Positions 13,448 through 30,937 of a DNA stretch of 64,000 nucleotides are shown piece after piece. A program made the position numbers and the translations under genes. The notes beneath the pieces were generated by a model, which made no database searches, was not told the origin of the DNA, and was given only the letters and a program-made list of their open reading frames with translations. The stretch is from contig CAYLPP010000004.1 in the NCBI GenBank assembly GCA_964385615.1, forward strand, positions 39,494-103,493, written 5' to 3'. Positions within the stretch are counted from its first letter, which is position 1. Every line of letters starts with the position of its first letter. The stretch is from an uncultured bacterium. Lineage in GTDB: Bacteria; Omnitrophota; Omnitrophia; Omnitrophales; Aquincolibacteriaceae.

Positions 13448-16400
13448 ATGCCTCGATTTTTAAGAGCCGCCGCGTTTACGGTTCTTCCTCTATTTATATG
13501 GAGTCAGATTAGCTGGGCCAACCCGCTTTTGGCGCAGTCCGGGGGAGAAGTGCGCCTGGAGACTCCGCAGATATCTGATTTTTCAATTCCGGAAAATCTG
13601 GGGAAAATACAGTTTGAGCATCCAGGATCCGGTCCTGCCATCATTCATATTCAAACGGCCCACGGAAATTATGGCGCAGAACAAAAAATAAGAGACCTGC
13701 TGGAGTATTTAAAAAAACGTTACGGCTTCAAACTTCTCTTAGTCGAAGGAACCGCTTCAAAACTTGAACCGGAACGCTTGAGTTTTTTTGGAAAAGAGAA
13801 ATCGCTGAGCCTTGAGACGGCTGAAAAATTGACTCGTGAGGCCCTCATGAAAGGTTCTGAGCTTTTTTTGATGGAAGAACCCGGCATGGAAGCTTACGGC
13901 ATTGAAAACCGGGAAGCGTATGTATCCAATGGTGAAGCGTTTCGGGCGGTGCTTACGGAACAAAAGGCTTCCGGGAAATTCCTCAGCGGGATGGATGAGC
14001 AGATTAACCGGTTATTGGCGGTTTTTACAGAGTCGTCTTTCCGCGGTTTTTTGTCCGAAATGCAGCGTTTTGAATCCGGGCAGGGCTCGCTCGCGGACTG
14101 GCTGGGATATCTTAAAAGTGTTACCGCAAAAAATTCAGGTTTAAACCTTGAAGACCCGGCTAATCAATTTGACTGGCCGATGCTGACCCGCTTCTTTAAA
14201 CTACAGGAACTTGAAAAGAAATATCATTCCGGCTCTTTCCGCGAGGAGCTTCCCGGCTTCCTGGCGCGGCTCCAGGGAATAAGTCCGGAATTATCCTCTC
14301 AGGCTGAAAAGTTATTTTCCGCGGAAAATATGCGGGTCCATCTGCCGTATCCTCAGACCGGTGAATTATTTGAGGCTATCGCGCGTGTTTTGCCTGAAGA
14401 CTTCAGCATTGACGCTTACCCGAATGTGAAAATCCGTGCGGCTTTTTTGATCCTCCAAAGTGAATTAAGCGCGGAAATGCTCATGAGAGAAACCGAAAAG
14501 CTTTCGGAGCTTGCTTCGGACGGGCTTGCCCGGACGGAAGATCAGAGGAAGATCTATGGGTTTTACCGGGACTATCTTTTGCTGACGAAACTTTTCGCAC
14601 TGAATGTCACGCCTGAGGAATACGGCTTAATTTTAAAACGCCGTGAAGCGCTGAACCCGGAAGCTTTGGCCGAAGAATTCCGGAGGCTGAACTCGGGAGG
14701 GCGTGTCCGTGATTTGAAGTTCGAACATTTGGCTGAAATATGTTCGCTATTTGAAAAATCGCTCGAATTTTATAAAGGGGCTAAAGAGCGTGACGCTTTA
14801 ATGATTCAGGGGGTTGAGCGGAGGTTAAAGGAAACCGGAGCGGACAAGGCAGTGGTGATTACCGGCGGGTTTCACGCGGAACCGTTTCAGGATTATTTTT
14901 CTTCTCATGGGTTTAATTATGCGCGGATCATGCCGGAGATTACAGTTTTAGGCGGAAGGGATGCCTATGTGGAAGCCGTTCTGCAGAGCCAGCCCCGCCT
15001 TTTTTTCGCATCGACCCGTGAAGTGCCGTTTGCTTTCGCTTCACCGGAAGCTCTTTTGGAAATGGATAGAAATGCTTATCTGGGCTCGCTCGACCGGCTG
15101 GTACGGGCTGAGCTTGAAACGGCTGAAGATTCCGGGGACTTAAAAAATATTGAGAAAGCGAATTCAAACGGCCGTTTATTCGGGATTCAATATCAAGCCG
15201 GTTCAAAAAATGTGACTGTGAGCGCGGATGGAAAAAAATTCACGGTTCCGGTTTCACTTCGTCTGAATTTAAATCAGACTCGGCTCCTTCAGCGTTCCGA
15301 GTTGAGGGTGGACGTTGAGAAACTTAAAAACGCCGCGACTAAAGATGAAGCGCTGCGTGATCTTTTGAGCACTCTGGTAAGCGGAAGCGATGACAGGCAG
15401 CGTTTGTCGGCCTATCGGATCCTCACGGGAGTTTTTAGACGGGGCTCGCATAGAGATGAGATTTATCAGCATTTTACGGATAATGACCGCCGAAAAATCC
15501 GGGAGCTGATGTTCCACGCTTTTTTTGATCCCGATCACCGGATCCGTCAAGACCTGGGGTACAACCTTTACGGAAGCCTCAAAGATTTGGCTTCAAATGA
15601 TGATCTTATGGATTATCTTGCCAGGGCCGACGTTTATCAGCCGGGGCATTTAAATGAAGCCGAGGAATTTGTTTCCTGGGAAGTTTCCGGTCAGGAACCT
15701 CGTTTGAGCCCTGAGGAAACTTACAGCCTGGCCACGCAGAAATACATGGGTAAAGAAGCCGTTCTTTTCGCGATTTCCCGGCGCATCCATTTTTCTCACG
15801 GGAATCCTGACGAGCCGTACTTTCAGGGAAAAATACAGGAGGCCGACGGGGATTTCCGGGCCGCTTTGAAGTGGTTTAATCCGGAAATTCTTCAAGACTC
15901 AAAATTCCCGATCGCGCGAGCGATCCACGCGGCTCTTTTTGAATTTGCGCGTGAGGAAATGGTCGAGAATCATATTCCCGCTTCCTTTCTTATTCCGGAT
16001 CAAAAGACGCATTCGGTGAAAAACTGGAGGCTTGAAATGATCCGGTGCGTGATGGGAGATGCCTACACTCCGTGGATTTCGGCGATGGTGAGTCTCTATG
16101 CTTCGTTTATCGCAGAGCATCAAGCGGTTTTAGGGCGCGAAAGTATTGGACTCAGCTTTCAGGAAATCCGGAATCGCAAGACCGGTACGGAAAAACCGAT
16201 TTTGTATGGACCGGTTAAGGCAGTTCTGGCGGGCGATGAGAATAAATTGGCGTATATCGCCGCCCGGAGTCTAGAGCATAAGAGTTCCAGCGGGGCCGAC
16301 ATCCGGGAAGGGTTGACTGTTCTGGAAGGATACCGCGAACTGCTCGCGGAAAATGGTTTTGACTTCGGCGACGCGATTCGAGTTTCAATCCGAAAAATGG

Positions 16401-19400
16401 GCACGCTTTCTAATTTAATAAACCGGAATTTCCTGAGCGCTTCGCGAGATGAAATAATGGGACCTCTTTTGGAGATTCAAGAAGATTTGAGAAGACTTTT
16501 AGAGCTCCTGACGGCGGAGGAACCGAAAATTCGGGGACGCAGTGAGGAGCTGATGCGGGGCAGTGACAAAAGACAGGGTGCCCGGCTTCGGAAAAATTTC
16601 GAAGTTCTCACGGAGCAAACCCGGCTTCTTAAGGTGTATCTTGATGACCGGATTGCGTTCGCGAACAAAAGCTCTGAACCCGCGCGTACGGAAGTGGTGC
16701 CGGTTCTGGGCTTAATTCAGTCACGGCATGGTCAGAAACTGGTTATTGAGACTTCAGATCTTTCCGGGGTTTCCGCCGCTATCTCCCGCGTCCGGCTTTT
16801 CTCGATTCTCAATAATCTTGTTTCGAACGCAATTGAGGCCCAGGCGGAGTATTCTCAGGAACCGGTAACTGTTCGAGTTTCCTTGGAAAAAGAGGGGATT
16901 CTTTTTGAAGTTCAAGATCACGGACCTGGTTTTCCTTCGGATTATTTTCAGCCCGGTGAAAATGGAATCCGCTTATTTGATCTGGATGAGAGGAAAGGGC
17001 TGGGATTGGCTGAAGTCTGGGCGACTACGGCCCTGGCTTCAGGGTTTCTGGATGTCATTTCCAAAAGCGGGAAAGGCTCCACAATCGGCGTGACAATTCC
17101 TCGCTCAGAGGTACGCACTCAAACATCCGAAGCCCCAGTCATTCAGGATTTAATCATTCCCGGTGTTTCGGCTAAAACACTTGGGGTTTCACCTTTGAGC
17201 CGGATTAAGGTGTGGAGGCGTAAACCGGTGCGGGGGAATCCTTCTCTGGTCCGGAGTAATGACAATCTTTTAGTGGTTGAAGCAAAAATGGCGAATGAAC
17301 TGAAAGCTTTAGACCAGATATGGGCGCGTATCGTGCTGCGTCTTGATAATCCGTCCGCGGAAGAAGTGGAAGGGATGCGGGTTATGGCGGAGGTCATTGA
17401 ACGCGTAAAAGTCCGTATCCGGCTTGAACAGAGGAAAAGCCAGGAAATTTTACGTGAGATTATGGGGTTTGAAGGAAGCGGGGGTATTTCAAACCCTAAA
17501 GCCCGCGAAATCGTTGAGAAAGAACTTCTTCCTGACTTGGAAGATCGTGATGAATTTCTTTTTTTGAGCGCTGCCGAAGAAGTCAAAGGCGTTTCGCTTG
17601 AAAAAGCCCGCACCGCGATTACCCGGCGGTATCAGACCTTGGCCATGATTAAGCTCTACCAAATTATTTTAAATCTGCCTTATGGGTTCCACACAGAAAG
17701 CGATGACGTGATTCAAATGCAAAGAAACCTGGCCGCATCCCGTAAGGATGAACTGGAAGCTGAAGTCCCGAGGATTTTAAGCGCGATTGAAAAAGGATCC
17801 AGCCCTCGTGCCGCCGTTCAGGAATCCATCGAACGTATCAAGATCAGAATCCGGGATCTTGACCGGGAGATTAAAGAGACTCCCAGCAGTGAGGACCGGA
17901 CGTCACTGAAAACACTGCGGACAATCGCGGTGGAACAGATCGGGTACCTTGAAAAAGTGGGAACCTCTTACGATGTTTACGAATATCTTTACGAGCCTCG
18001 TGATCCGGAGGATGTTAGAAAAGAAAAAATTAGCAACGAAACAAAACGTCATGTTCAGCTTGCCCGGACGGCGGGCGATGAATTCCCGGAGCTTAAACGG
18101 CGGGGATGGTCTCTGAAGACGATTTGGTTTTATGTGTTTTCATCAACAGCCTGGGTTTTTGGCCTGCATTTTTGGGCTGTTCGGTTTTTCCGTAAGAATC
18201 CTGATTTTTTTCTGAATTGGTTTAACGCTTACATCCGCAACGAGATTTCCAAAGGCCGGCCGGTTCAATACGCCGCTGCCAAGTTTTTCTATGAAAACCG
18301 TGAGCTGGCCGCGAAAAGGGATTCGCTGTTCTGGCCTTTTTTGATGCGTTATTACGATCTGGCTGAATATGGTCACGCCCGCAGAGAATCTGGTGACCCG
18401 GTCATCGTTTTTGCCGAAGAGATTCACGACGAATCGGATTATAACCGCCTGATGGCGAGTTCCCGGGGTCACGGGAAAATCGCGGCGATTGTCGCGCCTA
18501 AAATGGAAGGGGAAATGAGAATCCCTCACTGGTTTATTTACGCTAAGAAGGAAAATATTCTCGTTCTGACTTCTCTGGATTTAAGAAAAGCGGGGATCCG
18601 GCTGGAGGATCTTGAAAAGGCTGATGGGGAAGAGTACGAGGGGATGGTGGACGCGAAACGGGGGGTTCTGGTGATTAATCCCTCCGTGGAAACTCAGCTG
18701 GAGTGGCAGAGTAAGGGAGAAACTTACGAGCTCCAGGATAAATATTATTGGAGCCGCGCGCGTAAGCAGACCATTTTTAATCTGACTCAGATTGAGTACC
18801 TCGCGGATGAAACCAGCCTTGAAGCCATTGAATGGATGGATGGTCAACCCTCCCTGCTTTACCGCTCCGGCGCGAGCGGGGTTGGTTTATTCCGTCTCGA
18901 AGAACTTTTGACCGCTCAGATGGACCGCGCGGGTATTGAGCGCGATCCGGCGCGTATTCAGGCCGCGGGGTCGGAAATTCTTGGTTATCCGGAATTTGAA
19001 AATGGCCAGGTTTTTACTATCAGACTTAATGATGTGAGCGTGGACAAAAGACCTCAATTCCTTGTGGATGGCGCTAAAGGTTTGCGCGGATGGGATATGG
19101 ATGAAATTATCCGGACGATGTCCGGAGCCCGTTTTTACTTGAACCGGGAAAAGTATCCGGAATTTTATGAGTTCGGGAAAATGCAGTTAAAAGCCATTTT
19201 CGCGGCTCATTTACGCAAAGGTATCCGGCGTTCAGGGATTAAGATTTTGATTTCTGATGTCCGGAATGCTTCAGAAATCGAGGCGCTTGAAGCTTTGCTT
19301 TTGGACGCGAAAAAAGAATTTATCGAAGAGGTTATCATCGGTACTTCTGCGGACCTTTCCGCGAGACTTCACTACGAGGATATGACCCAGCTTCTCTCGA

Positions 19401-22400
19401 CACTCAATCCGGATGAAATCAGCGATGCGATTGAAAGAATCCCGATTGGTTACATGTATGAAGATACCACGGCGATTGAAAATGAACGGGAAGCCATGAC
19501 CCGAAAAGTAAAGGAATTGTCAAAAACCCATTGGCGCGAAAGGTTTTTTGGAATTGGTTCCAATGATTTGAGCAAGTCGATTAATAAAGACCGCATGGGC
19601 GGAACGATGGCGCTGGATGAGTTGAGTCCTCTCCTCGTTCGGGATATCTGGCTCGCCGCCAAATCGGCTCAAAGAGAAAATATTCCGGTTAACCTGGAAG
19701 GGGAGTTGGGCGGGTCCAAACCGATGGCTTTTATTCTTCTGGCTTTGCAGGAACTCTCTGGAGGGGTGAGGATCACTCCAGTCGCCGCGACCGCGCAAAT
19801 TCCTGAATTGAAGGAGCTGGTTCGTGAGCATGTAGAGATAAGTGATTTTACGGAACCCTTGCGGGGGCAAAAATATTCCTTGGCAGAGCTTTTAGAGAAG
19901 ATCAGGGCTCCTTCTTTTGACTTGAGTCAGTTCCCGCTGGAGGACTGGAAATCAATTTTAAATCAGCTGGTTTCTACCGTAGAGGCCAGAATTTTCGGAA
20001 GCGATGATTTTAATCATTTTGCCCAGCAGATTTCCGACGGAGTTGCTCCGGAAGACGCGGAAATTCAAGCTCCGAAAGAAGCTGGATATTCCCGTGTGGA
20101 AAGTTTGGATGACGGTAGAATCCGGGAGGATAGATTATACGCGGTCGGCGCCTATGCTTTTCATACAACGCCCAACCAAAAAATTATGGTATGGCTCGCG
20201 GCGCATAGAAATGTGCGCGCGGTTTACGGTAAAGGGGACGCCGACCCAATAACCGAGCTTTATGAGTTTAATTTTATCAATATTCTCACGGTCAGAATTC
20301 TCCGCAAGCAGAAAATGTTTTTTAGGGTTGAAGGCCCTGAAGCCGAGGTGAGGGAATTTTATGAATTAATCGATACGATGGTGGAATATGACGGCATGAC
20401 CAGCACATTTTCGCCCGCGTCCGGACGCTCTGAATTAAGAGTGAAGGCCGCTCCTCAGCTTCCCTGGGATGAAATTGAAAAAGCCCAGCAGGATTTTCGC
20501 CTAAGGCTCGCGGATCCGTCTTTAAAAGACGCGGTATTGCGGGAAATTTGGAATAACGTTCTTAACGGTCCGGATGAGCTCACCAGGGCCGCGAGCTATT
20601 ACATTCTCGCGGACTTCTTTACCCAGCCTGATTTATTTGCGGGAATTATCGGGAACAAGGAAAGGCTTTTTACGGGGCGGGTGCTCTTAAGTTCTTATTT
20701 CGACCCTTCAAAAAATATTCGAATGCCTTTAGCCAGCAACAACGCCGCGGAAGAGGTTTATGAGGCGGTCCCGGATAAAGCTTTGCTTGAACTGCTGAAT
20801 CAGACGGACGCTTATCCTTTTTTGAGAGTTAACGGCAAAAATGAATTGGAAACGATTAGCACGGGGGCTGACCCCCGCCTGGGTCCCGGTGCCGTGTTCA
20901 GTCCGGAGCTTCGGGCTTATTTCGCGAAAGAAGCGATTTTGTTCACTCTGTACCGCCGTTTAGCTAACAGTTCCAGCGGAACCCCGAAATTCATTCAATC
21001 TGAAATCGCGGCTGCACAGGCGGACCTTGATAAAGCTCAAACGGCTCATGATCCTTCTATTCTGGAAAATTCAAAATCTCCGATTTTAAGGGCCGTAGGC
21101 GCCGTGCTTTTTGAGTACCTGCGGGACGAGTACGTTGAGAATGGGGTTAAAAATGGACAAAGACTGATCGGCGAAAGTAATTGGGGGATCGCGGGCCGTT
21201 GGCGGTTAAATATGATTCAGGAAATTCTTGGGCCCGCTAACAAGGCCGCCGTGAGAGAAATAGCATGGGCCTATCTGGAATTTATTCGCCAGCACGAAGC
21301 TCATCTGGGGCCCGAGACCAGAGGTTTTGGCAGGGGCCGTTTAAGCCGCTCTGAATTGAGAAATGAAGAGCAGGGTAAATCGTTTGTTGAATTTCAGCGA
21401 TTCAGCCGGCTCCCGCGGATTGAGTCCGCGAAACTGCCGTTAGGATATTATATTCAATCCTCCGGACTCAATATTGCCGTGGTGGATGATCACCATAAAG
21501 TGGTGCCGATTTGGCGGGAAGCCCACGCACGGGGAATTATTCCGAAAAATTCTTCGCTGGTGCATATTGACGCGCACACGGATGATCTCTTTGTGCCGGA
21601 CAGTCTTAACGGTCTTGTTCCGCTCCCCTCGGGGATTTTAGACGGGGCTGTTTTGGCGGACTATTTGGAGCAAGTTAAACGGGGGATCGCGAAATATTAC
21701 CGGATTGGAACTTTTATCGCGCCGGAAGTTTTGGCCGGTCTAATTGATCCTGAAAAATGGTTCTTTATTAACTCGTTATCCAATCTTAGAAGCGGTCCGG
21801 GAAGATTTCAATTTCAATGGCGCGGAATTGGAGGTATCGAGATGCTTACGGCGGCTTATCCTTTCGCGGGTACTTTGGATCGAATTTTTAAGAATAATCA
21901 GCCGGATATCGTGAATTTCGACATTGATGTAATGGGAACGGAGGTTCACGTTTTCCGGAGCCTCTTCCGCGTTAAACTCTTCCGGTTTTTGGGAGATCAA
22001 AAAGCAGATTCAGCCCAGGAAATCCTCGATTTGCTTTCAAGAGATCCGGAACTGAAAGCGAAAGGTTTTAATTTAGCCGGCGGAAGATATTCAGAAATCG
22101 TGGAAGCCTATTTCCGCTCTGACAAGAAAACGCCGGTTTTGATTGAGCTGGAAAAGAGTTTGGCAGTGGAAACCGTTTTAGCTCAATGGTTTCCGGTTTT
22201 GCTTCCGCTTCTCTCTAGAGCTAAGCTGATTACGATTGCGACCAGCCCGGGCTATATCGACCAGGATGACGCTTTAAGAATTGTTAACCGTCTTCTTCCC
22301 GAATTAGAACAGTATAAGATTAGCGGAGTTTTGACCGTGTTTCCAGAAAGGGAGAGAGAGGAAGGCGCGGGAGAACTTCCTTTTGAGCAAAGAGCCCGCG

Positions 22401-23467
22401 CCGCTTTTGAGTCGATTCCCGCGGAAATTCGCTCAAAAATTCCGGATATTACTTTCGCGCAGGCTGAAGAATACGCGCGGAACTCAATTTCCGCGGATGA
22501 ACTGAAAGCAAGAGCGGAGGAAGATTTTTCTGAGGCTTGGCATCTGCCGTACGCGATTGATTTTGCCGGCCGGATTTCGCCCCGGGCTCTGGTTTATGCA
22601 CGGCTTGGAGAATTGTTTTTTAATGGAGGTAAACCGGATTCGGACGCGGCGCTGGCGGTTTTGCTGGGTCTTTACAAACGTAACGATCTTCCGCCGGAGG
22701 AAAAGGAAAATTTGAACCGGTTTGCCGCTTCTTTGGACCGCGAGCGGGATTTACCAGGGATCGTCGCGAAAAGTGTCCGCGATTTTAATCGGGTTATGAA
22801 ACGCTCGGAAATCCGGGTTTCAGGCGCGCAAACTCTTTCCCCGCTGTTTTTTTCCCGTCTGCTGGATTTGAGGTTTGATTTTATTCCGTTTTCCTGGTTT
22901 GAGATTTACGGCAGACAGGAACTTGAAAATACGTTTAACCGCTTGAAGAAAAACAGCCGGGCTCCAGGGGGAGCTTGGGCGCCGTTTACGGCCGATCAGC
23001 GCAATCAGCTGGGCGGTGTTCTGGGGATCCGCGGAAAATCAGAACCGCCGAACGTTCTGATTGTTGACCGCGTGGCGGGTGTGGACCGCGGATTGCTTTC
23101 TGTGCTGGGGGAAGCGGGACAAGGGGTTCGGGTTATTTTAGCGGGAGCTTCTGACGCGGATCGGAAGATTGTGGAAGCTTTGAACCGAGAGTTAAAAGCG
23201 CGGAAAAGGCCGGAAGTGCTTCTAGCCCAAAACGCGGAAGAAGCCCGCCGGATAGCTGATAAAGCGGTGAATGGAAAAGCGGTTATGCGGGCTTATCTGG
23301 ACGCCTCTGAAATTGGAAAATGGGGTGAAGCTTTGAGGAAGCAAAAAGCGGAAGTCGTCCCCATGACTCCGCGGATGTACCAAAATCTGACGGAAGGTTT
23401 TGCCGCCGCGGCTGCCCGGTTGACCGCCTTTTTTGAGATCAGGAAGCGCATCAGCTCTGCAGCATAG
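13448..23467 (+). CDS. Giant multidomain protein (3339 aa), called giant 1 below. Its parts are a signal peptide, a TraB/GumN/Tiki-like N-domain, a GHKL ATPase domain, one hydrophobic helix, an Enzyme-I-like PEP-utilizing module, an arginase-fold-like signature, and a C-terminal domain shared with the next gene.
   Basis: A single uninterrupted 10-kb ORF preceded by a GGAG ribosome-binding site. Details are in the findings. Confidence 0.85.
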   Translation: MPRFLRAAAFTVLPLFIWSQISWANPLLAQSGGEVRLETPQISDFSIPENLGKIQFEHPGSGPAIIHIQTAHGNYGAEQKIRDLLEYLKKRYGFKLLLVEGTASKLEPERLSFFGKEKSLSLETAEKLTREALMKGSELFLMEEPGMEAYGIENREAYVSNGEAFRAVLTEQKASGKFLSGMDEQINRLLAVFTESSFRGFLSEMQRFESGQGSLADWLGYLKSVTAKNSGLNLEDPANQFDWPMLTRFFKLQELEKKYHSGSFREELPGFLARLQGISPELSSQAEKLFSAENMRVHLPYPQTGELFEAIARVLPEDFSIDAYPNVKIRAAFLILQSELSAEMLMRETEKLSELASDGLARTEDQRKIYGFYRDYLLLTKLFALNVTPEEYGLILKRREALNPEALAEEFRRLNSGGRVRDLKFEHLAEICSLFEKSLEFYKGAKERDALMIQGVERRLKETGADKAVVITGGFHAEPFQDYFSSHGFNYARIMPEITVLGGRDAYVEAVLQSQPRLFFASTREVPFAFASPEALLEMDRNAYLGSLDRLVRAELETAEDSGDLKNIEKANSNGRLFGIQYQAGSKNVTVSADGKKFTVPVSLRLNLNQTRLLQRSELRVDVEKLKNAATKDEALRDLLSTLVSGSDDRQRLSAYRILTGVFRRGSHRDEIYQHFTDNDRRKIRELMFHAFFDPDHRIRQDLGYNLYGSLKDLASNDDLMDYLARADVYQPGHLNEAEEFVSWEVSGQEPRLSPEETYSLATQKYMGKEAVLFAISRRIHFSHGNPDEPYFQGKIQEADGDFRAALKWFNPEILQDSKFPIARAIHAALFEFAREEMVENHIPASFLIPDQKTHSVKNWRLEMIRCVMGDAYTPWISAMVSLYASFIAEHQAVLGRESIGLSFQEIRNRKTGTEKPILYGPVKAVLAGDENKLAYIAARSLEHKSSSGADIREGLTVLEGYRELLAENGFDFGDAIRVSIRKMGTLSNLINRNFLSASRDEIMGPLLEIQEDLRRLLELLTAEEPKIRGRSEELMRGSDKRQGARLRKNFEVLTEQTRLLKVYLDDRIAFANKSSEPARTEVVPVLGLIQSRHGQKLVIETSDLSGVSAAISRVRLFSILNNLVSNAIEAQAEYSQEPVTVRVSLEKEGILFEVQDHGPGFPSDYFQPGENGIRLFDLDERKGLGLAEVWATTALASGFLDVISKSGKGSTIGVTIPRSEVRTQTSEAPVIQDLIIPGVSAKTLGVSPLSRIKVWRRKPVRGNPSLVRSNDNLLVVEAKMANELKALDQIWARIVLRLDNPSAEEVEGMRVMAEVIERVKVRIRLEQRKSQEILREIMGFEGSGGISNPKAREIVEKELLPDLEDRDEFLFLSAAEEVKGVSLEKARTAITRRYQTLAMIKLYQIILNLPYGFHTESDDVIQMQRNLAASRKDELEAEVPRILSAIEKGSSPRAAVQESIERIKIRIRDLDREIKETPSSEDRTSLKTLRTIAVEQIGYLEKVGTSYDVYEYLYEPRDPEDVRKEKISNETKRHVQLARTAGDEFPELKRRGWSLKTIWFYVFSSTAWVFGLHFWAVRFFRKNPDFFLNWFNAYIRNEISKGRPVQYAAAKFFYENRELAAKRDSLFWPFLMRYYDLAEYGHARRESGDPVIVFAEEIHDESDYNRLMASSRGHGKIAAIVAPKMEGEMRIPHWFIYAKKENILVLTSLDLRKAGIRLEDLEKADGEEYEGMVDAKRGVLVINPSVETQLEWQSKGETYELQDKYYWSRARKQTIFNLTQIEYLADETSLEAIEWMDGQPSLLYRSGASGVGLFRLEELLTAQMDRAGIERDPARIQAAGSEILGYPEFENGQVFTIRLNDVSVDKRPQFLVDGAKGLRGWDMDEIIRTMSGARFYLNREKYPEFYEFGKMQLKAIFAAHLRKGIRRSGIKILISDVRNASEIEALEALLLDAKKEFIEEVIIGTSADLSARLHYEDMTQLLSTLNPDEISDAIERIPIGYMYEDTTAIENEREAMTRKVKELSKTHWRERFFGIGSNDLSKSINKDRMGGTMALDELSPLLVRDIWLAAKSAQRENIPVNLEGELGGSKPMAFILLALQELSGGVRITPVAATAQIPELKELVREHVEISDFTEPLRGQKYSLAELLEKIRAPSFDLSQFPLEDWKSILNQLVSTVEARIFGSDDFNHFAQQISDGVAPEDAEIQAPKEAGYSRVESLDDGRIREDRLYAVGAYAFHTTPNQKIMVWLAAHRNVRAVYGKGDADPITELYEFNFINILTVRILRKQKMFFRVEGPEAEVREFYELIDTMVEYDGMTSTFSPASGRSELRVKAAPQLPWDEIEKAQQDFRLRLADPSLKDAVLREIWNNVLNGPDELTRAASYYILADFFTQPDLFAGIIGNKERLFTGRVLLSSYFDPSKNIRMPLASNNAAEEVYEAVPDKALLELLNQTDAYPFLRVNGKNELETISTGADPRLGPGAVFSPELRAYFAKEAILFTLYRRLANSSSGTPKFIQSEIAAAQADLDKAQTAHDPSILENSKSPILRAVGAVLFEYLRDEYVENGVKNGQRLIGESNWGIAGRWRLNMIQEILGPANKAAVREIAWAYLEFIRQHEAHLGPETRGFGRGRLSRSELRNEEQGKSFVEFQRFSRLPRIESAKLPLGYYIQSSGLNIAVVDDHHKVVPIWREAHARGIIPKNSSLVHIDAHTDDLFVPDSLNGLVPLPSGILDGAVLADYLEQVKRGIAKYYRIGTFIAPEVLAGLIDPEKWFFINSLSNLRSGPGRFQFQWRGIGGIEMLTAAYPFAGTLDRIFKNNQPDIVNFDIDVMGTEVHVFRSLFRVKLFRFLGDQKADSAQEILDLLSRDPELKAKGFNLAGGRYSEIVEAYFRSDKKTPVLIELEKSLAVETVLAQWFPVLLPLLSRAKLITIATSPGYIDQDDALRIVNRLLPELEQYKISGVLTVFPEREREEGAGELPFEQRARAAFESIPAEIRSKIPDITFAQAEEYARNSISADELKARAEEDFSEAWHLPYAIDFAGRISPRALVYARLGELFFNGGKPDSDAALAVLLGLYKRNDLPPEEKENLNRFAASLDRERDLPGIVAKSVRDFNRVMKRSEIRVSGAQTLSPLFFSRLLDLRFDFIPFSWFEIYGRQELENTFNRLKKNSRAPGGAWAPFTADQRNQLGGVLGIRGKSEPPNVLIVDRVAGVDRGLLSVLGEAGQGVRVILAGASDADRKIVEALNRELKARKRPEVLLAQNAEEARRIADKAVNGKAVMRAYLDASEIGKWGEALRKQKAEVVPMTPRMYQNLTEGFAAAAARLTAFFEIRKRISSAA

Positions 23468-23692: not shown

Positions 23693-26600
23693 ATGAAAAA
23701 ACGGGACGGCAGACTCGTAAGGAAAACAAGCGCGGCCATTACGGCCGCGTGTTTTATCGCCCAACAGATTTTTGCACCCGCTGTTTCTTCTGCCTCCGAA
23801 GTTCAGGAAAGCAGTCTCCGAGTTCCCTCAATTGAAATTCCCGCTGAAATAGGTTCCCTTGAAACCTCAGGGATTTTAGAAGATCAAAAGCCCATGATTA
23901 TTCAGGTTCAGGACGCTCACGGAAATTATGACGCTCAGAAAAATATTCAAAAAATTCTCCAGCATCTTACCGCCTATGAAGGCGTCGACCTTGTTTTGCT
24001 CGAAGGCGGAAAAGGCCCGCTTCATCCCGAAATCCTGAATTTTTTACCAAGACGTCCTGATTTGAATCTGGAAATCGCCGACCGTCTGGCTCAGCAATCT
24101 GAACTGAGCGGAGCGGAGATTTTTCTTCTAGACCGGTATTTGGCGGGGAAGACTCTTGCCGCATTTGGGATTGAAAACGCTCCGGCTTACCGGGAGAACC
24201 GTGAAGCTTTTCAAAAAGTTCTGCGCGCCCGGGAGCAAAGCGGAAATTTCTTAAAAGATATGGAAATGCAGATTGACCGCCTGACGGCGCCTCATGTGAA
24301 TCCTCAGCTCAAAAATTTTCTGCGCAGTTATGAAGCTTATGAATCACGGCAGATGGATTTGACGGTATGGCTCCGCCAGCTTGAGGAGCTTTCACGCAAG
24401 CACTTGGGCTTGGACCTGGATTTAGCCGGAAGTCAGAAAGACTGGCCGATGCTCACCCGGTATTCCCGCCTGCGTAAACTCGAACCCAAACTTGATAAAA
24501 CGCGTGTTGAAAACGACAAAACGGCGATGCTTCAAAAACTTAGGTCGCTCAATGTTTCTAAAGCGGTGATTGAGGCTTTTGACAATGCCGTGAATATGGC
24601 CCCGGATAACGGTGTTCAGGCTTCTCAAATTGTGAAAGCTGTTGAGAGTGTGATGGAAGCGGTTCCTTCCGATTTTTCTTTTGAACCCTATGGGTTCCTG
24701 AAAGCTTGGATTCAGTTTGAAGTTTTTCAGCGTGAGCTTAATGGAGAAGCTTTATTCGCGGAGGTCAGCAAACTGGAAGATCTTCTCTCAAATCAGCTGG
24801 CCAGAACCGAAACCGAGAAAAAACTTCTGGCCCTCTTTAAAGATTACCGTGCTCTAAACAAACTTTTCGCTCTCGAACTTACCCGGGAAGATTATCAGAA
24901 TATCCAGCGTTCTGAGGACACGATGACGCCTTCGGCCATCGCCGGACGGTTTTCAGCGGTCAATAAAAACAAGCAGGTCCGCGACACGCAGTTTATTCAT
25001 TTAAAAGAACTCGACGCTCTTTATTCGCTCGCGCTTAATTTTTACCGCGGAGCGCTTGACCGCGATCATTTGATGGCGGACAACATTTTGGAAACTATGC
25101 AGGCGCAGGGGAAGCGCCGGGCGGTTGTTGTGACCGGCGGGTTTCATTCAGAAGGAATGCAGGAATACTTTCAATCCAAGGGTTTTTCTTACGCGCGGAT
25201 CAGCCCGCGAATTCAGGAGCTGGGTGACAACAAAGCTTATATCCGGGCAATGCTGGATGAAGATGTTGAAATTAAAAAATCGCAGGTCGCGGATATCCTG
25301 GTGGAACAATTCGGGGAAGTTCAGCTGGAGCTGGGGAGCGCCAGCCACTTAACCCGCAAGGACGCAGTCATTTACCGGGTCATGCGGGATGTCGTTGAAC
25401 ACGCGGGCGCGCGCTCAGAAATGCGCGGACGGCGTGATTGGATTTACGGTATCGGGCTTGTGACCGCGATCGGTTTAGCGGCTTATGCCGCGTTTAGACC
25501 CTTGCCTGTCAATCCGCCGGCTCAGCAGGATGTGCCTGCAAAAGTCGCGGAGCTAGAACCTAAACCGGTTCAGCAGGAGAAGAAGGTTGAAGAAAAAAAG
25601 CCCGCTCCGATTCCTGAAGTGGTGCCGCTGCCTCAGCCTGAAAAGAAAGCTCCAATTGTTAAAATAGATGAGCCTGTGATTGATAAGGCCGAAACGCTCC
25701 GTGTTTGGGGTAAGCGGGAAGTGCCTAAAATTTCTCCTGAAAAACTCGAGGCTCTTGTCACTTCAGATTTAAACGCGGAACAGATCCGGTATTTGCTGAA
25801 ATACGATAAGCGGTCGAAACAGCTTGAGTCCGCGGGAGCGGGAAAAAACACGGTTTGGAGTATTGAAGCCGGTGTCCGTCATATTACAGAAGCTAAGCTG
25901 AATAAGGCGGAGAAGGCGGAGTTTGAAGCGACGAAAGGCGCGATTGAAGAGTTTTTGAAAGAACTGAAAGAAGACGGCGCTTTTAAAGAAGGGCAGACCG
26001 CTCTGGATCTTTATTACTTTTTCTTCCGCCCGCTTTTTGTGGTGCAGGACCGTCATGGAGCTGCCGCCGCGAAGTGGGTGGTAGAAATGCAGATTGCTTA
26101 CTTTACGGTTAAGAATAATTTTGAGATCAACCTGAAAGGGTTAACTGAAAAATCTTTGAGCGCGACTTATATCCGCACCATTGAGGACTATCTGAATGCT
26201 GATGAGTGGAAAGCTAACGGCGGGGAACGGTTAAAAATCGCGTTCGCGCTTTCTATTTTATACGCGCAGATGGATAATTATAAACAGGTGATTTGGCGTA
26301 ATCACGACTGGTCAAAATTCAAAAGGCTTGAGCTTCCGGCTGAACTCGAACTCTACCGCTTTTACGGCGAAAAAGGGCTCGGCAAAGATGCGTTGGAACG
26401 CATGGAGCTCGAACTTAAAGCTGAAATCCGCGGCCCCAGACCCCTGGGAAAAAATAATGCCTGGAACAACCGCCCGAATCTCCCCCAACGTTATGTCGGC
26501 CTTTACGAAGAAGTTTATTCCAGGACCTGGTATTACTCGACCATGCACCGTGAGCGTTTTTACCGGCCCGGAGATTTCCGCCTCGGAGCGACTCCGAATC

Positions 26601-29600
26601 CCTGGTTCCCGACGCATACGCTGATGTACTTCCATATTTCCAGAATGGATTGGGTCCAGAAACGCGCTTCGGATGTAACGGGTGTGAGCCGTGAACCCTA
26701 TTTCATCGCGCCGGTGGCGATCCAGCTGCCCAGCGACAACATCCGCAAAAACAAATTTCCGATTATTATTCCAGCACGCCCGGACGCTGTCTGGGGCGCG
26801 ATGGGGCTCGGCGATAGAAGCAGTCAGCGGGCTGAAGATATTTTCAGTTTTCATCTTTCCAATCCTTCCGCTTGGAAGCCGGGTGAAAAAGACGAGCTTC
26901 AATATCTCGATCAGGTTTTTGACGCGGCAAAAATGAAAGATTTCAGTAAGCAGTTCCGCGCATTATGGGACAGCGGAAAAGTCCGGAAATTGTATGTCCA
27001 GGATTACGGAGAATTTCTGGTGGATGATTTCCTCAAGAAGTTCATTGACCAGAATTATTTTGACGTTTTCAACGGTCAGCTGAAAGGAAACGAAAAGTAT
27101 TTTGATGATCTCGCGAAGGCTTTGAGGACGCAATATCCGAAACTTCCTTACGATTATCAGGTTTATCTTCAAATTCCTCTCCTTCGCTATGAGGCCGGGA
27201 AAAATCTCAAGCTGGATGATGATTATATGGCGTATCTCCGCGCGGATCTTTACCAGTCCGCGGCTCAGCTTGCCCGGGATATCTATGTCAACAACACGCA
27301 GGCGCTGATCGGCTCAGCTTACCGGCAGGGAATTTATGACACTCCGGGCGTCTTAGCGTATGTTGAACGGCACATTATTTTCCGGCCCATGGTTGAAAAG
27401 CTTCTAGGCCGTGAGCTTGTTCTCTCAGACCCTCACTCGAACGATTCGGGGCGTCTGTCCGCGTTCGTTAATGAAATTTACAAAAGAGATATTGATCCGG
27501 ACATCTGGTATCTGATTACCCGCTATACGCTTGAAGAATCCACGCAAAAAAGTGCGCTGGAATTTTACAACGCCGTGATGGGTACTGAATTAACTTCTTT
27601 GGGGCTTAACGATAAAGACGAAAAACTCGCGGCGGTCCGCTTCGGGGTTCTGCTTTCGTACGCGGCCGAGGACATTCTTCACCCGGGCCGGATGGAGAAA
27701 ATAAAAACGTTCTTAAAAACACCGGCGATGCGCCGTAAAGCTGTCGAGTTTGCCATCCGCACGCGCGGGGCATTTAGAAGTGAGCCTGATCTTACGGGAG
27801 ATGACTTAAAACGCGCCGCTGACGCGCTTGAAAAAGATCTTTTGGAGCAGAAAAACTCAGAAGCCCTTGTGCGCTACACCGGCTACTTGATCGGGCAGGC
27901 CCGGACCGCTGTTTTGAAAGACGTTCTGGATAGCGATGAAAATTTTAAGGAGTGGGTGGAATTGACGGACGCTTTGATTAAGGTTCTTGATCCGCGAGCG
28001 CCTAAAAAACGTTCCGAAGCGCGGGCGGTTTCCCGGGCGCCGGAATCTTTCGAGGCTGATTTTATCGAAGCTTTTTTAAATTCAAAGTTAATGGATTTAA
28101 CGGATCGTGAGAGGGTTGTTTTTACGAGACGGTTCGCCGAAAAGAAAAAGGTGAATGAAATCGCGGCGGAATTGAAAATTGCCGGGCCTGCTGTTTCCAA
28201 GGTTATCGCGAGTCTCCAGCTGAAAACGGATTATTTCTCGGTGAATATTTACGGCAAGCCTTTGCTCGATCCCCGCAAGCTCAATGAGCTCCCCGTGGAA
28301 AGGGTCGGATACCTTGATCAAAAAACCCTGACAGCCTGGAAAGGCAGGGGGATTAATAATTTGAAGGACTTGGTGACACGAATGCCTGAACTTCTGGATG
28401 ATCCCCAGAAAACAGGACCGGCGCTTAAAATAGTTTCCCAATACCTGATCGCTTTGGGAGTGAATCTTAATCTGGGATTGATTATGGATCTTACCCCTGA
28501 AGCTTCGTCCGCGCTGGAAGCTATGACTCTTCAGGAATATTTGGTTCAGGAAAACGCATACCAACTGCTTTTGAGAGTTCAAGCGGTTCAAGACCCTCTG
28601 TTTTTACCGCAAAAGAAACGTGAGGAAAGACCGGGTAAATTAAGACAGCTTGGAGTGAATACGGTCGGCGACCTTCTTAAGGTCGGGCTTGATGCGTTCA
28701 GACAGGCGGGATTTACCTCTTCCGACATTAAGTTAATCGCGGCGGTTTTAAAAGTTCAGCCGGCAGGAACAAGCGCCCGCTCAGAACTCCGCTCGGAAGA
28801 AACGAAACCGGAAGCCCAAGGCAAAGCTGTACCGGTACGGTCCGAAGTTCTTCAAAGAGTCCGGAGTCTCAAGACTGATGAGGTGGAAAAGTTAACGACG
28901 GAAGATCTCGCTGGAATCGTTCGTGAACTTGTGGAGAGCGGAATTTTAAAGGATTACGAAGGGCTTCAAGTGCTGTTAACGTTGTTTTCTGCGGGCCCGG
29001 CGACTGGGAAAGGCGCTTTGATGAGCGCGACTTTTCTGGCTGAAGAAGAAGGAGAAATCGCCCCCTATCAAGATCTGGTGGATAAATTCGTTCTTTTTCA
29101 CACCCGCGCTCCGCGAGTGGATAAAAAAGGAAGATCGGAAAAGAACGGAAGAGCTTACTATTTCGTGAAAACGGAAGATTTAAAACAGTTGGCGGCGGAA
29201 CTTGGCGAAGATGTTCTGGTCGTTCGGGAAATCAACCGGGAAGTTCAGGCGCTCGCGCGTAAAAATTTCACACTGCCTCATGTCGAAGTCGGGGAGGTCA
29301 CCGGTTCTGGACAGCTTCAGCCGGGCGATCTTGTCGTGAGCTTCGATGCTTCCCAGGGGCTTTTAGTCATTCAGCGCGGGGAATTCACGATTCCTCTGAC
29401 GGGGGTGACCATTCCTGAAGGCTCTGCGGGGTATTTTTTAAATGGGGATAAAATTGAAAAAGTTGAAGGGCCGGCGGTCTATGTAAGCCGGCAGATTAAA
29501 GGGATTGAAGAAACGTTTAAGAGCGGAAAGCTGACCATTCTTGAAGGCGGTTATGAATGGTTCAAATGGGTTAAAGAGCATTATCCGGAAGTTCTGACCA

Positions 29601-30937
29601 TGTTTTTATCGCCTTTCCGCGAACCCGAATTCGCCGTGCGTGCCCAGAATTTGGCATGGATCCGGGAAAACTTTTCAACCCCTGAAGATATTTACGCGGC
29701 TTTTGAAGCGATGACGGATTTGATTAAAGCCAATAAAGGTGAAATTTCCATTCCTTCGTCAACGGGCTATCAGGCGGCTATAAAAGCCAAGGTTGATTCC
29801 AAACCTGCGATTCCGCCTGTGCTGGCCGAAAACACCGCGGTCATTCTTAATGACGCTGATTTTATCGCTGAACTCAATCAGCTTCGGAGCCGTTTTGGAA
29901 AGCCTTCGCTGAAGCCGGAAGATTACGATTTGGCCCGGGCCCTGGCCTTTGAAGTTCAGAGGAGGCTTTTCGGCCGTGATGGGGTGAAGGCGTTTCGTGT
30001 CGGCGGGGAAAGAAGCAATCCTTACGACCGGATTTTAGAAGGAACCTTGCAGATTCTGGACCGGAATTCCGATTACGGCGCTGAAAACGTTCTTCCGAAT
30101 CCTTTTGGGTACACGGAAGACGAGAAAAGTAAAAACATTAATGAGTTGAGCGATCAGTTCGCCCGGCGTGTTTTCCTGCACGTTGTGGAAGGTCTTCGCC
30201 GGTCAGAGATCAGAAATAATCCGGCGGATATTACCGCGGTATCCCTGCTTGAAGGCAAACCGGGGACGCCTTCAGAATTATTAGTTCAGGCTCCGGTTGG
30301 GATTTCACCGCGGAAGACTTTGCGCGCGGTCCAAATCGTTACTGAGGTTTTTGATGGAATTGCGCCTACGGCTGGAATTCTCGGCATTTCGGCGGAAGTT
30401 CTGATTGACCGGATATCTGCCGGTGAAAGCGGAAAGGTTTCACCGTGGGTGCCGTTTACCGATGAACAAAGAAAACAGCTGAGCGGAGTGCTGGGAATTC
30501 GCGGGCATGGAACTCAAGCAAATGTTCTGATTACTGAACCCGTCGCTGGTATTGATAATGGCCTGCTCGCTTTACTCGGTGAAGCTGGAGAAGGCGTTCT
30601 GGTTATTTTGGTGGGCGCGGATGATCAGCAGAAGCGTATCGTCGCTGAAATGAATAAAGAATTAAAAGCCGTGAAGCGTCAAGAAATCCGGCTGGCTAAA
30701 GATACGGTCGAAGCCCGGAAGATCGCGGATCAATACACTAAGGGAAAAACCGTGATGCGGGCGTATGTCGACGTTTCAATGGTAGGCCGGTACGGTACGG
30801 CGCTGCGTAAACAGCTTGCGGATGTTATCCCGATGACTCCCAGAATGTACGAGAATATGAAGCAGGGGTTTGCCGCGGCGGCAGCCCGCCTGACGGCTTT
30901 CTTCGAAATCAGCAAACGGATCAAATCCGCGGCATAA
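23693..30937 (+). CDS. Giant multidomain protein (2414 aa), called giant 2 below, a paralog of giant 1. Its parts are a signal peptide, a TraB/GumN/Tiki-like N-domain, a TM helix with a Pro/Lys-rich linker, a sigma70-r4-like HTH, two RNAP alpha-CTD-like HhH domains, and the shared C-terminal domain.
   Basis: A single 7.2-kb ORF preceded by an AGAGG ribosome-binding site. Its N- and C-terminal regions align clearly to those of the upstream giant. Confidence 0.85.
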   Translation: MKKRDGRLVRKTSAAITAACFIAQQIFAPAVSSASEVQESSLRVPSIEIPAEIGSLETSGILEDQKPMIIQVQDAHGNYDAQKNIQKILQHLTAYEGVDLVLLEGGKGPLHPEILNFLPRRPDLNLEIADRLAQQSELSGAEIFLLDRYLAGKTLAAFGIENAPAYRENREAFQKVLRAREQSGNFLKDMEMQIDRLTAPHVNPQLKNFLRSYEAYESRQMDLTVWLRQLEELSRKHLGLDLDLAGSQKDWPMLTRYSRLRKLEPKLDKTRVENDKTAMLQKLRSLNVSKAVIEAFDNAVNMAPDNGVQASQIVKAVESVMEAVPSDFSFEPYGFLKAWIQFEVFQRELNGEALFAEVSKLEDLLSNQLARTETEKKLLALFKDYRALNKLFALELTREDYQNIQRSEDTMTPSAIAGRFSAVNKNKQVRDTQFIHLKELDALYSLALNFYRGALDRDHLMADNILETMQAQGKRRAVVVTGGFHSEGMQEYFQSKGFSYARISPRIQELGDNKAYIRAMLDEDVEIKKSQVADILVEQFGEVQLELGSASHLTRKDAVIYRVMRDVVEHAGARSEMRGRRDWIYGIGLVTAIGLAAYAAFRPLPVNPPAQQDVPAKVAELEPKPVQQEKKVEEKKPAPIPEVVPLPQPEKKAPIVKIDEPVIDKAETLRVWGKREVPKISPEKLEALVTSDLNAEQIRYLLKYDKRSKQLESAGAGKNTVWSIEAGVRHITEAKLNKAEKAEFEATKGAIEEFLKELKEDGAFKEGQTALDLYYFFFRPLFVVQDRHGAAAAKWVVEMQIAYFTVKNNFEINLKGLTEKSLSATYIRTIEDYLNADEWKANGGERLKIAFALSILYAQMDNYKQVIWRNHDWSKFKRLELPAELELYRFYGEKGLGKDALERMELELKAEIRGPRPLGKNNAWNNRPNLPQRYVGLYEEVYSRTWYYSTMHRERFYRPGDFRLGATPNPWFPTHTLMYFHISRMDWVQKRASDVTGVSREPYFIAPVAIQLPSDNIRKNKFPIIIPARPDAVWGAMGLGDRSSQRAEDIFSFHLSNPSAWKPGEKDELQYLDQVFDAAKMKDFSKQFRALWDSGKVRKLYVQDYGEFLVDDFLKKFIDQNYFDVFNGQLKGNEKYFDDLAKALRTQYPKLPYDYQVYLQIPLLRYEAGKNLKLDDDYMAYLRADLYQSAAQLARDIYVNNTQALIGSAYRQGIYDTPGVLAYVERHIIFRPMVEKLLGRELVLSDPHSNDSGRLSAFVNEIYKRDIDPDIWYLITRYTLEESTQKSALEFYNAVMGTELTSLGLNDKDEKLAAVRFGVLLSYAAEDILHPGRMEKIKTFLKTPAMRRKAVEFAIRTRGAFRSEPDLTGDDLKRAADALEKDLLEQKNSEALVRYTGYLIGQARTAVLKDVLDSDENFKEWVELTDALIKVLDPRAPKKRSEARAVSRAPESFEADFIEAFLNSKLMDLTDRERVVFTRRFAEKKKVNEIAAELKIAGPAVSKVIASLQLKTDYFSVNIYGKPLLDPRKLNELPVERVGYLDQKTLTAWKGRGINNLKDLVTRMPELLDDPQKTGPALKIVSQYLIALGVNLNLGLIMDLTPEASSALEAMTLQEYLVQENAYQLLLRVQAVQDPLFLPQKKREERPGKLRQLGVNTVGDLLKVGLDAFRQAGFTSSDIKLIAAVLKVQPAGTSARSELRSEETKPEAQGKAVPVRSEVLQRVRSLKTDEVEKLTTEDLAGIVRELVESGILKDYEGLQVLLTLFSAGPATGKGALMSATFLAEEEGEIAPYQDLVDKFVLFHTRAPRVDKKGRSEKNGRAYYFVKTEDLKQLAAELGEDVLVVREINREVQALARKNFTLPHVEVGEVTGSGQLQPGDLVVSFDASQGLLVIQRGEFTIPLTGVTIPEGSAGYFLNGDKIEKVEGPAVYVSRQIKGIEETFKSGKLTILEGGYEWFKWVKEHYPEVLTMFLSPFREPEFAVRAQNLAWIRENFSTPEDIYAAFEAMTDLIKANKGEISIPSSTGYQAAIKAKVDSKPAIPPVLAENTAVILNDADFIAELNQLRSRFGKPSLKPEDYDLARALAFEVQRRLFGRDGVKAFRVGGERSNPYDRILEGTLQILDRNSDYGAENVLPNPFGYTEDEKSKNINELSDQFARRVFLHVVEGLRRSEIRNNPADITAVSLLEGKPGTPSELLVQAPVGISPRKTLRAVQIVTEVFDGIAPTAGILGISAEVLIDRISAGESGKVSPWVPFTDEQRKQLSGVLGIRGHGTQANVLITEPVAGIDNGLLALLGEAGEGVLVILVGADDQQKRIVAEMNKELKAVKRQEIRLAKDTVEARKIADQYTKGKTVMRAYVDVSMVGRYGTALRKQLADVIPMTPRMYENMKQGFAAAAARLTAFFEISKRIKSAA

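Follow-up and report, generated by a model that had tools for sequence, protein, structure and literature searches.

Giant Omnitrophota proteins with a recurrent R-S-E-x-R junction motif: a possible polyprotein-like family

How can a protein that begins with an export signal carry domains whose substrates, ATP and phosphoenolpyruvate (PEP), belong to the cytoplasm? The question is raised by two giant genes in a 64,000-nucleotide stretch of DNA from an uncultured Omnitrophota bacterium (contig CAYLPP010000004.1, positions 39,494 to 103,493 of the forward strand; the whole stretch is called the window here). Giant 1 (g1) encodes 3339 amino acids (aa); giant 2 (g2), its paralog in tandem, shares the N- and C-domains and encodes 2414. 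The first-pass annotation of this DNA had seen in g1 a signal-peptide-like N terminus, an ATP-binding GHKL domain, and a single internal hydrophobic helix that would separate this domain from an Enzyme-I-like module. The topology puzzle that it described proved to be real and general, in that an export-type N terminus stands ahead of modules needing cytoplasmic substrates (ATP, PEP). We report that g1 and g2 belong to a family of proteins whose modules are separated by a short motif, R-S-E-x-R, and that autonomous units separated in this way most likely resolve the puzzle.

Similarity between g1 and g2 is confined to their ends, with 36.5% identity in the N-domain and 59% in the C-domain. Searching with the N-domain returned 12 proteins in a clustered protein collection and 226 relatives in one-genome-per-species contigs. 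We fetched 80 of the 226 loci; the named genomes there were Omnitrophota, often with several loci or paralogs per genome, and the relatives reached at least 7.6 thousand residues (kaa). The layout of the family is a constant signal-bearing N-domain, variable cargo modules split by R-[S>A]-E-[V/L/A/M/I]-R, and a constant C-domain. In the six-frame translation of the window, [RK]SE[LIVMA]R was found five times in g1, four times in g2, and nowhere else. The codons differ among the nine copies, and the conservation therefore lies at the protein level; a DNA-level origin of the motif (repeated linker, recombination site, or RNA signal) was rejected given these codon differences and the unrelated flanks, and no relevant tandem repeats were found in the window. 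Across 82 family proteins, R[SA]E[LIVMA]R occurred 420 times in 205,871 residues, against 4.6 ± 1.9 times in shuffled sequences. When the set was extended to 100 proteins, RSE[LIVMA]R was observed 434 times against 2.1 expected, a 203-fold enrichment. RSD..R was never found in this set and Lys rarely replaced Arg; both Arg residues and the Glu of the motif are required. The flanks of the motif are unconserved, and the median spacing from motif to motif is 199 aa. Residues beside the motifs form low-confidence linkers in both AlphaFold2 (AF2) models. Motifs in other open reading frames of the family loci belonged mostly to upstream tandem members or to the same frame split by runs of N. The features of the two genes, in window coordinates, are the following:

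13448..23467, + strand: open reading frame of g1, 3339 aa; identical to the public protein P0013
13448..13519, + strand: signal-peptide-like segment of g1, aa 1-24, MPRFLRAAAFTVLPLFIWSQISWA
13580..14992, + strand: constant N-domain of g1, aa ~45-515; EreA/ChaN/Tiki/TraB-like fold with a large helical insert
15293..15307, + strand: junction RSELR, g1 aa 616-620
16157..16171, + strand: degenerate junction FQEIR, g1 aa 904-908; aligns with the RSELR that closes the paralogous module
16790..17104, + strand: GHKL/HATPase_c domain, g1 aa 1115-1219 (PF02518, E 6.9e-12)
17102..17116, + strand: junction RSEVR, g1 aa 1219-1223
17117..20425, + strand: module M2, with a conserved N-terminal region, an Enzyme-I-like unit, and a diverged HPr-like tail
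18098..18193, + strand: hydrophobic, aromatic-rich insertion of ~30 residues, g1 aa 1551-1582
20426..20440, + strand: junction RSELR, g1 aa 2327-2331
20441..21346, + strand: module M3, paralog of g1 aa 621-~900 (31% identity, E 1e-39)
21347..21361, + strand: junction RSELR, g1 aa 2634-2638
21362..22801, + strand: module M4, with a UPF0489 (arginase/deacetylase-like) domain at aa 2676-2773
22802..22816, + strand: junction RSEIR, g1 aa 3119-3123
22817..23464, + strand: constant C-domain of g1, last residues ...FFEIRKRISSAA; 59% identical to the g2 C-domain
23693..30937, + strand: open reading frame of g2, 2414 aa
25412..25426, + strand: junction RSEMR, g2 aa 574-578
25439..25495, + strand: hydrophobic segment of g2, WIYGIGLVTAIGLAAYAAF, aa 583-601, ~4-5 residues past the motif; best 19-residue Kyte-Doolittle mean (KD19) 1.67
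25496..25762, + strand: Pro/Lys/Glu-rich spacer of g2
28010..28024, + strand: junction RSEAR, g2 aa 1440-1444, directly ahead of a sigma-70 region-4-like helix-turn-helix (HTH)
28778..28792, + strand: junction RSELR, g2 aa 1696-1700
30200..30214, + strand: junction RSEIR, g2 aa 2170-2174
30215..30934, + strand: constant C-domain of g2, last residues ...FFEISKRIKSAA

The segments between motifs are complete units. In the relative at locus L003, a triosephosphate isomerase is complete (profile positions 2-244 of 245) and occupies aa 1172-1432, with motifs at 1160 and 1437. Other motif-bracketed units include an NAD-dependent 2-hydroxyacid dehydrogenase in L077 and in L032, an enzyme of the 6-phosphogluconolactonase (6PGL)/glucosamine-6-phosphate isomerase type in L032, and one of the inositol monophosphatase (IMPase) type in L045. 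No motif fell strictly within a Pfam envelope among the envelopes found; one, RSEVR of g1, meets a border, its first Arg (aa 1219) also closing the HATPase_c envelope. Module M2 offers a view of the same junction in many contexts. With a regular expression as anchor, 11 giants were scored; in 10 of them, g1 and two giants with the variant R-T-E-x-R included, M2 starts 19-37 aa past a motif. For the eleventh, P0020, a distance of 11 aa was printed, the pattern having matched an earlier site. By eye, an uncounted twelfth giant (P0017) has its motif at a similar spacing. The position of M2 among the giants ranges from aa 659 to 3740, behind differing upstream modules, and in stand-alone M2 homologs from Elusimicrobiota the place of the motif is taken by a signal peptide with an Ala/Pro-rich leader. 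Two paralogous modules of g1, aa 621-~900 and 2332-2633, differ at their C-terminal junction (FQEIR versus RSELR), and the module with the decayed FQEIR is fused to the GHKL part. This pair suggests that junction motifs may be gained or lost in evolution. Taken as a whole, the genes present what is looked for in a polyprotein: autonomous units and a short conserved junction motif within one open reading frame.

The residues and signals that follow the motif look like those of N termini. Among 132 internal hydrophobic segments, 38 begin no more than 40 aa past a motif, against 11.5% expected (2.5-fold), and many of these post-motif segments have the look of Sec signal peptides, with A-x-A sites, or of signal anchors. 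The g2 segment at aa 583-601 belongs to this class. In 271 kaa, seven internal sites combine a lipobox with a hydrophobic run; four of the seven lie no more than 45 aa past a motif, where 8% would be expected, and one more comes after the variant RSETR. For example, we found RSELR-GKFAKSIILGIIALAAGC and RAELR-VGAVIQRVAIFAAVAAMTGLVGC. At the position directly following 506 motifs, Pro drops to 0.22-fold and Leu, Phe, Trp, and Tyr to 0.38-fold (p = 7e-14), and small residues are enriched 1.78-fold; upstream of the motif, Pro is enriched about twofold. From what is known of proteases and of the bacterial N-end rule, such residues are expected for a scissile bond after Arg and for a stable new N terminus.

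We then return to the stretch that had been taken for the topology divider of g1. Window positions 18100-18190 encode g1 aa 1551-1581 and include IWFYVFSSTAWVFGLHFWAV. The hydrophobic stretch of the first-pass annotation is present, at aa 1559-1578, and is only marginally hydrophobic: its KD19 is 1.15 and its best 21-residue mean is 1.20, below the level of a transmembrane (TM) helix (~19 or more residues with a mean of at least ~1.6), which the g2 segment reaches. On a simple biological-scale sum it still ranks top among the internal segments of g1, and basic residues flank it on both sides. In a MAFFT alignment, RRGWSLKTIWFYVFSSTAWVFGLHFWAVRFFRKNP is an insertion of ~30 residues in two of 17 homologous modules, those of P0014, the nearest relative of g1, and of g1 itself. 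The P0014 copy is less hydrophobic than that of g1, and in the other 15 modules the flanks are contiguous. In the AF2 model of M2, the insertion has a predicted local distance difference test score (pLDDT) below 50, forms two short helices rather than one long one, and sits between the confident helices 298-321 and 362-378 (M2 numbering) of a single domain. A TM helix would be expected to be conserved and to lie between folded units; this stretch lies within the Enzyme-I-like fold, in its part that resembles the N-terminal domain of Enzyme I (EIN). Since the model matches full-length Enzyme I, the insertion is inside the Enzyme-I-like unit and not between GHKL and Enzyme I, and the claim that this module is wholly C-terminal to the helix was inaccurate. 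Nor do nucleotide-dependent domains lie on both sides, as the Enzyme-I-like module belongs to a PEP-dependent class. Alignment and model instead favor the alternative that the same annotation had offered, a helix that does not span the membrane, through the two-in-17 distribution, the low KD19, and the placement in the fold. We conclude that aa 1559-1578 constitute a lineage-specific insertion within the Enzyme-I-like module and no credible topology divider; at most, the insertion could be a peripheral membrane-contacting hairpin.

The GHKL domain itself was confirmed: HATPase_c at aa 1115-1219 covers profile positions 4-109 of 111, as befits a Bergerat fold. The GHKL unit (g1 aa ~975-1223) also drew many NCBIfam histidine-kinase matches, all well under their cut-offs, and no HisKA match was found in the Pfam scan of g1. 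By eye, aa 997-1007 (window 16436-16468), SASRDEIMGPL, have Arg where the H-box His is expected, and the ATP boxes are intact. The unit may be a pseudo-kinase or a non-canonical ATPase.

For M2, PEP-utilizers_C was detected at aa 1806-1961 (PF02896, E 6e-11), and an NCBIfam Enzyme I match at aa 2031-2104. Foldseek with the M2 model returned Enzyme I, pyruvate phosphate dikinase, and the C-terminal domain of Enzyme I (EIC), with a target-normalised TM-score of up to 0.74. Against full-length Enzyme I of the phosphotransferase system (PTS), ~680 columns aligned at E ~1e-14, and isolated EIN and EIC domains matched as well. The PEP/Mg ligand motifs are kept (GVGLFRLEE, IRLNDVSVDK, and GIGSNDL align with the Enzyme I motifs). 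The His of RIPHWF (aa 1691-1696) is invariant, as H471 of alignment A2; judged from its position only, it is the putative swivel His, equivalent to His189 of Enzyme I. The catalytic Cys of Enzyme I (Cys502) is absent: LEGELGG of g1 (aa 2083-2089, window 19694-19714) aligns with MCGEMAG, with Glu for Cys, a change common to the relatives of M2 (LEGEWGGS). The tail of M2 is HPr-like; g1 has a diverged version, and the relatives P0018 and P0019 have a canonical one (GLHARP). A word-index homolog search with M2 gave no matches, whereas an exhaustive HMMER search of representatives with g1 aa 1224-2326 found 26 relatives, most within other giants (2.9-7.6 kaa) and some as stand-alone Elusimicrobiota proteins of ~1000-1400 aa. 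By eye, these stand-alone homologs (P0022, P0025, P0026, and P0031/P0040) have N-terminal signal peptides and long Ala/Pro-rich leaders, and P0025 additionally has a C-terminal HATPase_c. Export signals are thus joined to cytoplasm-type phosphotransfer domains beyond Omnitrophota as well, in Elusimicrobiota.

At the N terminus of the giants, signal-peptide features are widespread. The start of g1, MPRFLRAAAFTVLPLFIWSQISWA|NP, shows the n, h, and c regions expected for a Sec signal peptide, in keeping with the first-pass annotation: an n-region MPRFLR with two Arg, a 12-residue h-region AAAFTVLPLFIW, and small residues at -3/-1 (S-W-A|N, aa 22-24). In the AF2 model this segment is a helix (3-24) followed by a disordered linker (22-41). 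A K/R-rich n-region and a hydrophobic core of ~10 residues were seen in 67 of 73 family N termini; at the family-wide median, three K/R precede a 10-residue core with a mean Kyte-Doolittle value of 2.49, and many relatives have an unusually long c-region. Fold searches placed the N-domain in the EreA/ChaN/Tiki/TraB superfamily, whose alpha/beta fold it shares, and the relatives include the secreted effector HopBA1 and the MARTX effector RRSP. On Pfam profiles the domain scored lower, with 18.1 bits for PF04187 on g2 (cut-off 27.7) and no match on g1. Alignment A1 has the invariant residues H72 (AHG), E100, E153, R448, and GGFH473-476, a candidate G-x-x-H/Glu/Arg set that may relate to the catalytic residues of Tiki and EreA. 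In some relatives (L033:3458-4369, the locus of P0006; also P0003, P0009, and P0012) the N-domain gene contains in-frame insertions of tandem heptanucleotides, (GTACGGA)n with inverted complements, at three variable loops, encoding, e.g., TEYGVRSTA...TPYAFRRT. Similar palindromic hairpins of the 7-mer lie 5' of the N-domain match, at L033:1286-1357 and L033:2228-2308. The insertions look like a small palindromic repeat element tolerated within genes.

At the other end, complete family members close with a conserved amphipathic helix and ...[S/T/A]-A-(A), in a wider form [S/T/A/K]-[S/A]-A. These C termini were seen in L007, L016, L021, L039, L053, L060-L064, L068, and L076-L080, and at window positions 23429-23464 in g1 and 30899-30934 in g2. 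The ending recalls Ala-Ala degradation or processing tags at C termini. In L003 the C terminus is only five residues past the motif (RSELR-VRISA). A homolog search with the C-domain as query gave zero matches. Family genes are often arranged in tandem like g1 and g2 (L014, L023, L031, L050, L064, and L079), and in those loci the open reading frame directly upstream carries the motif and ends in the family C terminus (...SA or ...AA). Upstream of both g1 and g2 there is AT-rich intergenic DNA with good ribosome-binding sites, for g1 GGAG, 7 nucleotides 5' of the ATG.

In g2, the hydrophobic segment at aa 583-601 and the Pro/Lys/Glu-rich linker behind it are present as annotated. The further suggestion, that what follows this segment is plausibly cytoplasmic, is not secure, with the segment only ~4-5 residues past a motif and an Arg-rich N-terminal side; as an N-in/C-out anchor of a separately released product, the segment would fit at least as well. 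The spacer presumably resembles that of TonB. Pfam gave for g2 a weak ChaN/Tiki match in the N-domain and the sigma-70 region-4-like HTH. The puzzle is sharper in relatives such as L032 and L045, which have no TM-like segment in ~3900 aa, yet carry sugar-phosphate and NAD-dependent enzymes behind a signal-like N terminus. Likewise, L003 has no convincing TM-like segment between its N terminus and the triosephosphate isomerase.

Given these observations, we tentatively propose that the giants are polyprotein-like genes of an Omnitrophota family, cut after the second Arg of the motif, with products that are localised individually; this may well be so, although we would not yet call it probable. 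The cutting enzyme would be an Arg-specific endopeptidase, acting most likely on the cytoplasmic side, and each product would be sorted by its own signals. The N-domain would be exported through Sec, modules opening with their own signal peptide, lipoprotein signal, or anchor would be exported or inserted into the membrane, and modules lacking such signals would stay in the cytoplasm. For g1, the expected products are an exported N-domain and cytoplasmic GHKL, EI-HPr-like, helical-repeat, and UPF0489 units and C-domain. For g2, they would be an exported N-domain, an N-in/C-out anchored product from aa 579 (GRRDW, the TM segment, and the spacer), and cytoplasmic HTH and P-loop units. A bolder version, possible but rather doubtful, is that Omnitrophota encode many enzymes and envelope proteins as true polyproteins, from which an R-S-E-x-R-specific protease would yield dozens of sorted proteins, and that the giants of 10-147 kaa may share the code.

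Several points weigh against this proposal. Signal-peptide and TM calls were made with hydropathy heuristics, not trained predictors. The data show the family, the motif and its statistics, the autonomy of the modules, the g1 helix as an insertion, and the folds; cleavage of the motif, the position of the cut, and the cutting enzyme are what we infer from sequence. The composition at P1' could in part mirror general linker composition. Positive-inside counts for post-motif segments were 17 versus 13 when the Arg of the motif was excluded and 29 versus 7 when it was included, and the comparison is significant only when the motif's own Arg is counted. No obvious candidate for a protease gene near the giants was found in the window; among the constant parts, the N-domain is the one candidate that has peptidases among its relatives (Tiki, RRSP), and it carries the export signal and would therefore be on the wrong side for cytoplasmic cutting. 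With Glu in place of the catalytic Cys, the chemistry of M2 may differ from PEP-dependent phosphotransfer, and the Elusimicrobiota signal peptides suggest that Enzyme-I-like modules may work outside the cytoplasm of their producer.

The last of these points favors export of the whole protein, in which the giant crosses the inner membrane, its modules act in the periplasm, at the cell surface, or in prey or host, and the motif is cut only there, as in MARTX toxins, possibly by the Tiki/RRSP-like N-domain. The family-wide conservation of the signal-like N terminus, the many members that run for more than 3800 aa free of TM-like segments, the signal peptides of the stand-alone M2 homologs, and the kinship of the N-domain fold to HopBA1 and RRSP all favor such export, as do published proposals that the lifestyle is predatory or episymbiotic and that effectors act outside the cell. 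We nevertheless regard it as unlikely: sugar-phosphate enzymes (triosephosphate isomerase, 6PGL-type, and IMPase-type) and an NAD-dependent dehydrogenase would travel as cargo without obvious extracellular substrates, lipoprotein and Sec signal peptides behind the motif function only from the cytoplasmic side, and the MARTX hallmarks (glycine-rich repeats and the C80 cysteine protease) are absent from the Pfam scan. A scaffold that is never cut seems similarly improbable to us. Here the giant would stay intact, held by its N-terminal segment and occasional TM helices, and the motif would be recognised by a partner that binds it, by an enzyme that modifies it (Ser kinases and Arg-modifying enzymes are examples), or by a chaperone or targeting factor dealing with a single module at a time. 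A strict motif with unconserved flanks does imply a common trans-acting reader, whose kind it leaves unspecified; the UPF0489 module of g1 is weakly similar to peptide arginases, and in recent literature the giants are taken for single polypeptides associated with the membrane. However, a tethered chain leaves the topology unsolved for members with a signal-like N terminus, no TM segment, and cytoplasm-type enzymes, and it explains neither the lipoprotein signal peptides behind the motif nor the depletion of Pro and enrichment of small residues exactly after it. Far less probable still is the literal reading of g1, in which aa 1559-1578 are a true single-pass TM helix that leaves the N-domain and GHKL in the periplasm and everything from the Enzyme-I-like module onward in the cytoplasm. 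Its rank on the biological scale and the basic residues on either side speak for it; they are set against the KD19 of only 1.15, the lack of the stretch in 15 of 17 modules and its lower hydrophobicity in P0014, its position within one Enzyme-I-like unit whose flanking helices are confidently modelled together, and the two short helices, not one long one, in the AF2 model.

The polyprotein-like organisation proposed above bears on an explicitly open question for Omnitrophota giants, namely whether they are single chains or cut pieces. Metabolic enzymes on the periplasmic face are biochemically awkward, and the junction motif offers a simple way out. It supplies concrete candidate cut sites, at which giants can be split computationally for structure prediction and annotation. 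If cleavage is confirmed, it points to a sequence-specific protease yet to be named, and polyprotein expression at such a scale would, to our knowledge, be without precedent in cellular organisms. If the code extends to the giants of 10-147 kaa, and if it is true for them, the view of these as single huge membrane proteins would be overturned.

Other observations concern the remainder of g1 and the window. The UPF0489 domain (window 21473-21766, g1 aa 2676-2773) shows its weak similarity to the FlmR/OhkR family of peptide arginases acting on ribosomally synthesized and post-translationally modified peptides (E 6.4e-5), which is curious since the junction motif holds two invariant Arg. GC skew is positive over the whole window, and nearly all long open reading frames are on the + strand. 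Four of them have no Pfam match at E <=0.001 (14-1963, 38836-39315, 39559-40383, and 40953-41549; 159-649 aa). Among the neighbouring genes, AnmK, a glycoside hydrolase family 3 (GH3) hydrolase, permeases, BipA, ferredoxin oxidoreductase subunits, and VanY were considered and are not obvious junction proteases; the same holds for the RecN-like, RadC, and FecR-like proteins and the extracytoplasmic function (ECF) sigma factor.

Among known systems, flavivirus-type polyproteins offer a close parallel. They are made as several proteins from one open reading frame, with basic junctions cut by a dedicated protease that takes Arg at P1 and a small residue at P1', and with internal signals handled by host signal peptidase, so that products arise on both sides of the membrane. 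The giants likewise have one open reading frame, autonomous units, short basic junctions, and internal signals. They differ in being chromosomal and bacterial, in having many paralogs and mostly metabolic or regulatory cargo, in the R-S-E-x-R motif itself, and in that cleavage is so far a prediction. MARTX toxins are cut after Leu. The giants resemble them in the fold match of the N-domain to the MARTX effector RRSP; membership was rejected, as Pfam scans of g1 and g2 at E <=0.1 gave no glycine-rich A/B/C repeats and no C80 domain, and no features of type I secretion were found; the giants differ further in having housekeeping-type enzymes among their cargo and units with their own signal peptides. 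Enzyme I and HPr of the PTS share with M2 the fold, the PEP/Mg motifs, and an HPr-like segment that follows, and the invariant His of M2 is, by position, a putative swivel His; M2 differs in its N-terminal extension of ~290 residues, the Glu for Cys, the hydrophobic insertion, and the giant-protein setting.

A further parallel is offered by the giant multi-enzyme proteins of Omnitrophota and the Archaeovorins, which combine a signal peptide and/or TM segments with unrelated cytoplasm-type domains, including HATPase_c (10.1101/2023.11.21.568195; 10.64898/2026.06.07.730766). They share with g1 and g2 the phylum and the topology contradiction, and cleavage has been suspected there; at 3.3 and 2.4 kaa, g1 and g2 fall under the 10-kaa cut-off of the surveys. 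West-Roberts et al. suspected cleavage and state that lack of information on cleavage points blocked further analysis (10.1101/2023.11.21.568195). A recent survey places the metabolic content of giants with both signal peptide and TM segments on the periplasmic face and leaves the contradiction open (10.64898/2026.06.07.730766). Both 10.1101/2023.11.21.568195 and 10.64898/2026.06.07.730766 are silent on the constant N- and C-domains and on the R-S-E-x-R motif. Literature searches for the motif strings returned only unrelated alginate-lyase papers, and those combining "Omnitroph" with "polyprotein" returned nothing relevant. Polyprotein and modular-toxin architectures as such are already known; what is new here, as judged from the searchable literature, is their counterpart in chromosomal genes of a bacterial phylum with an undescribed junction code.

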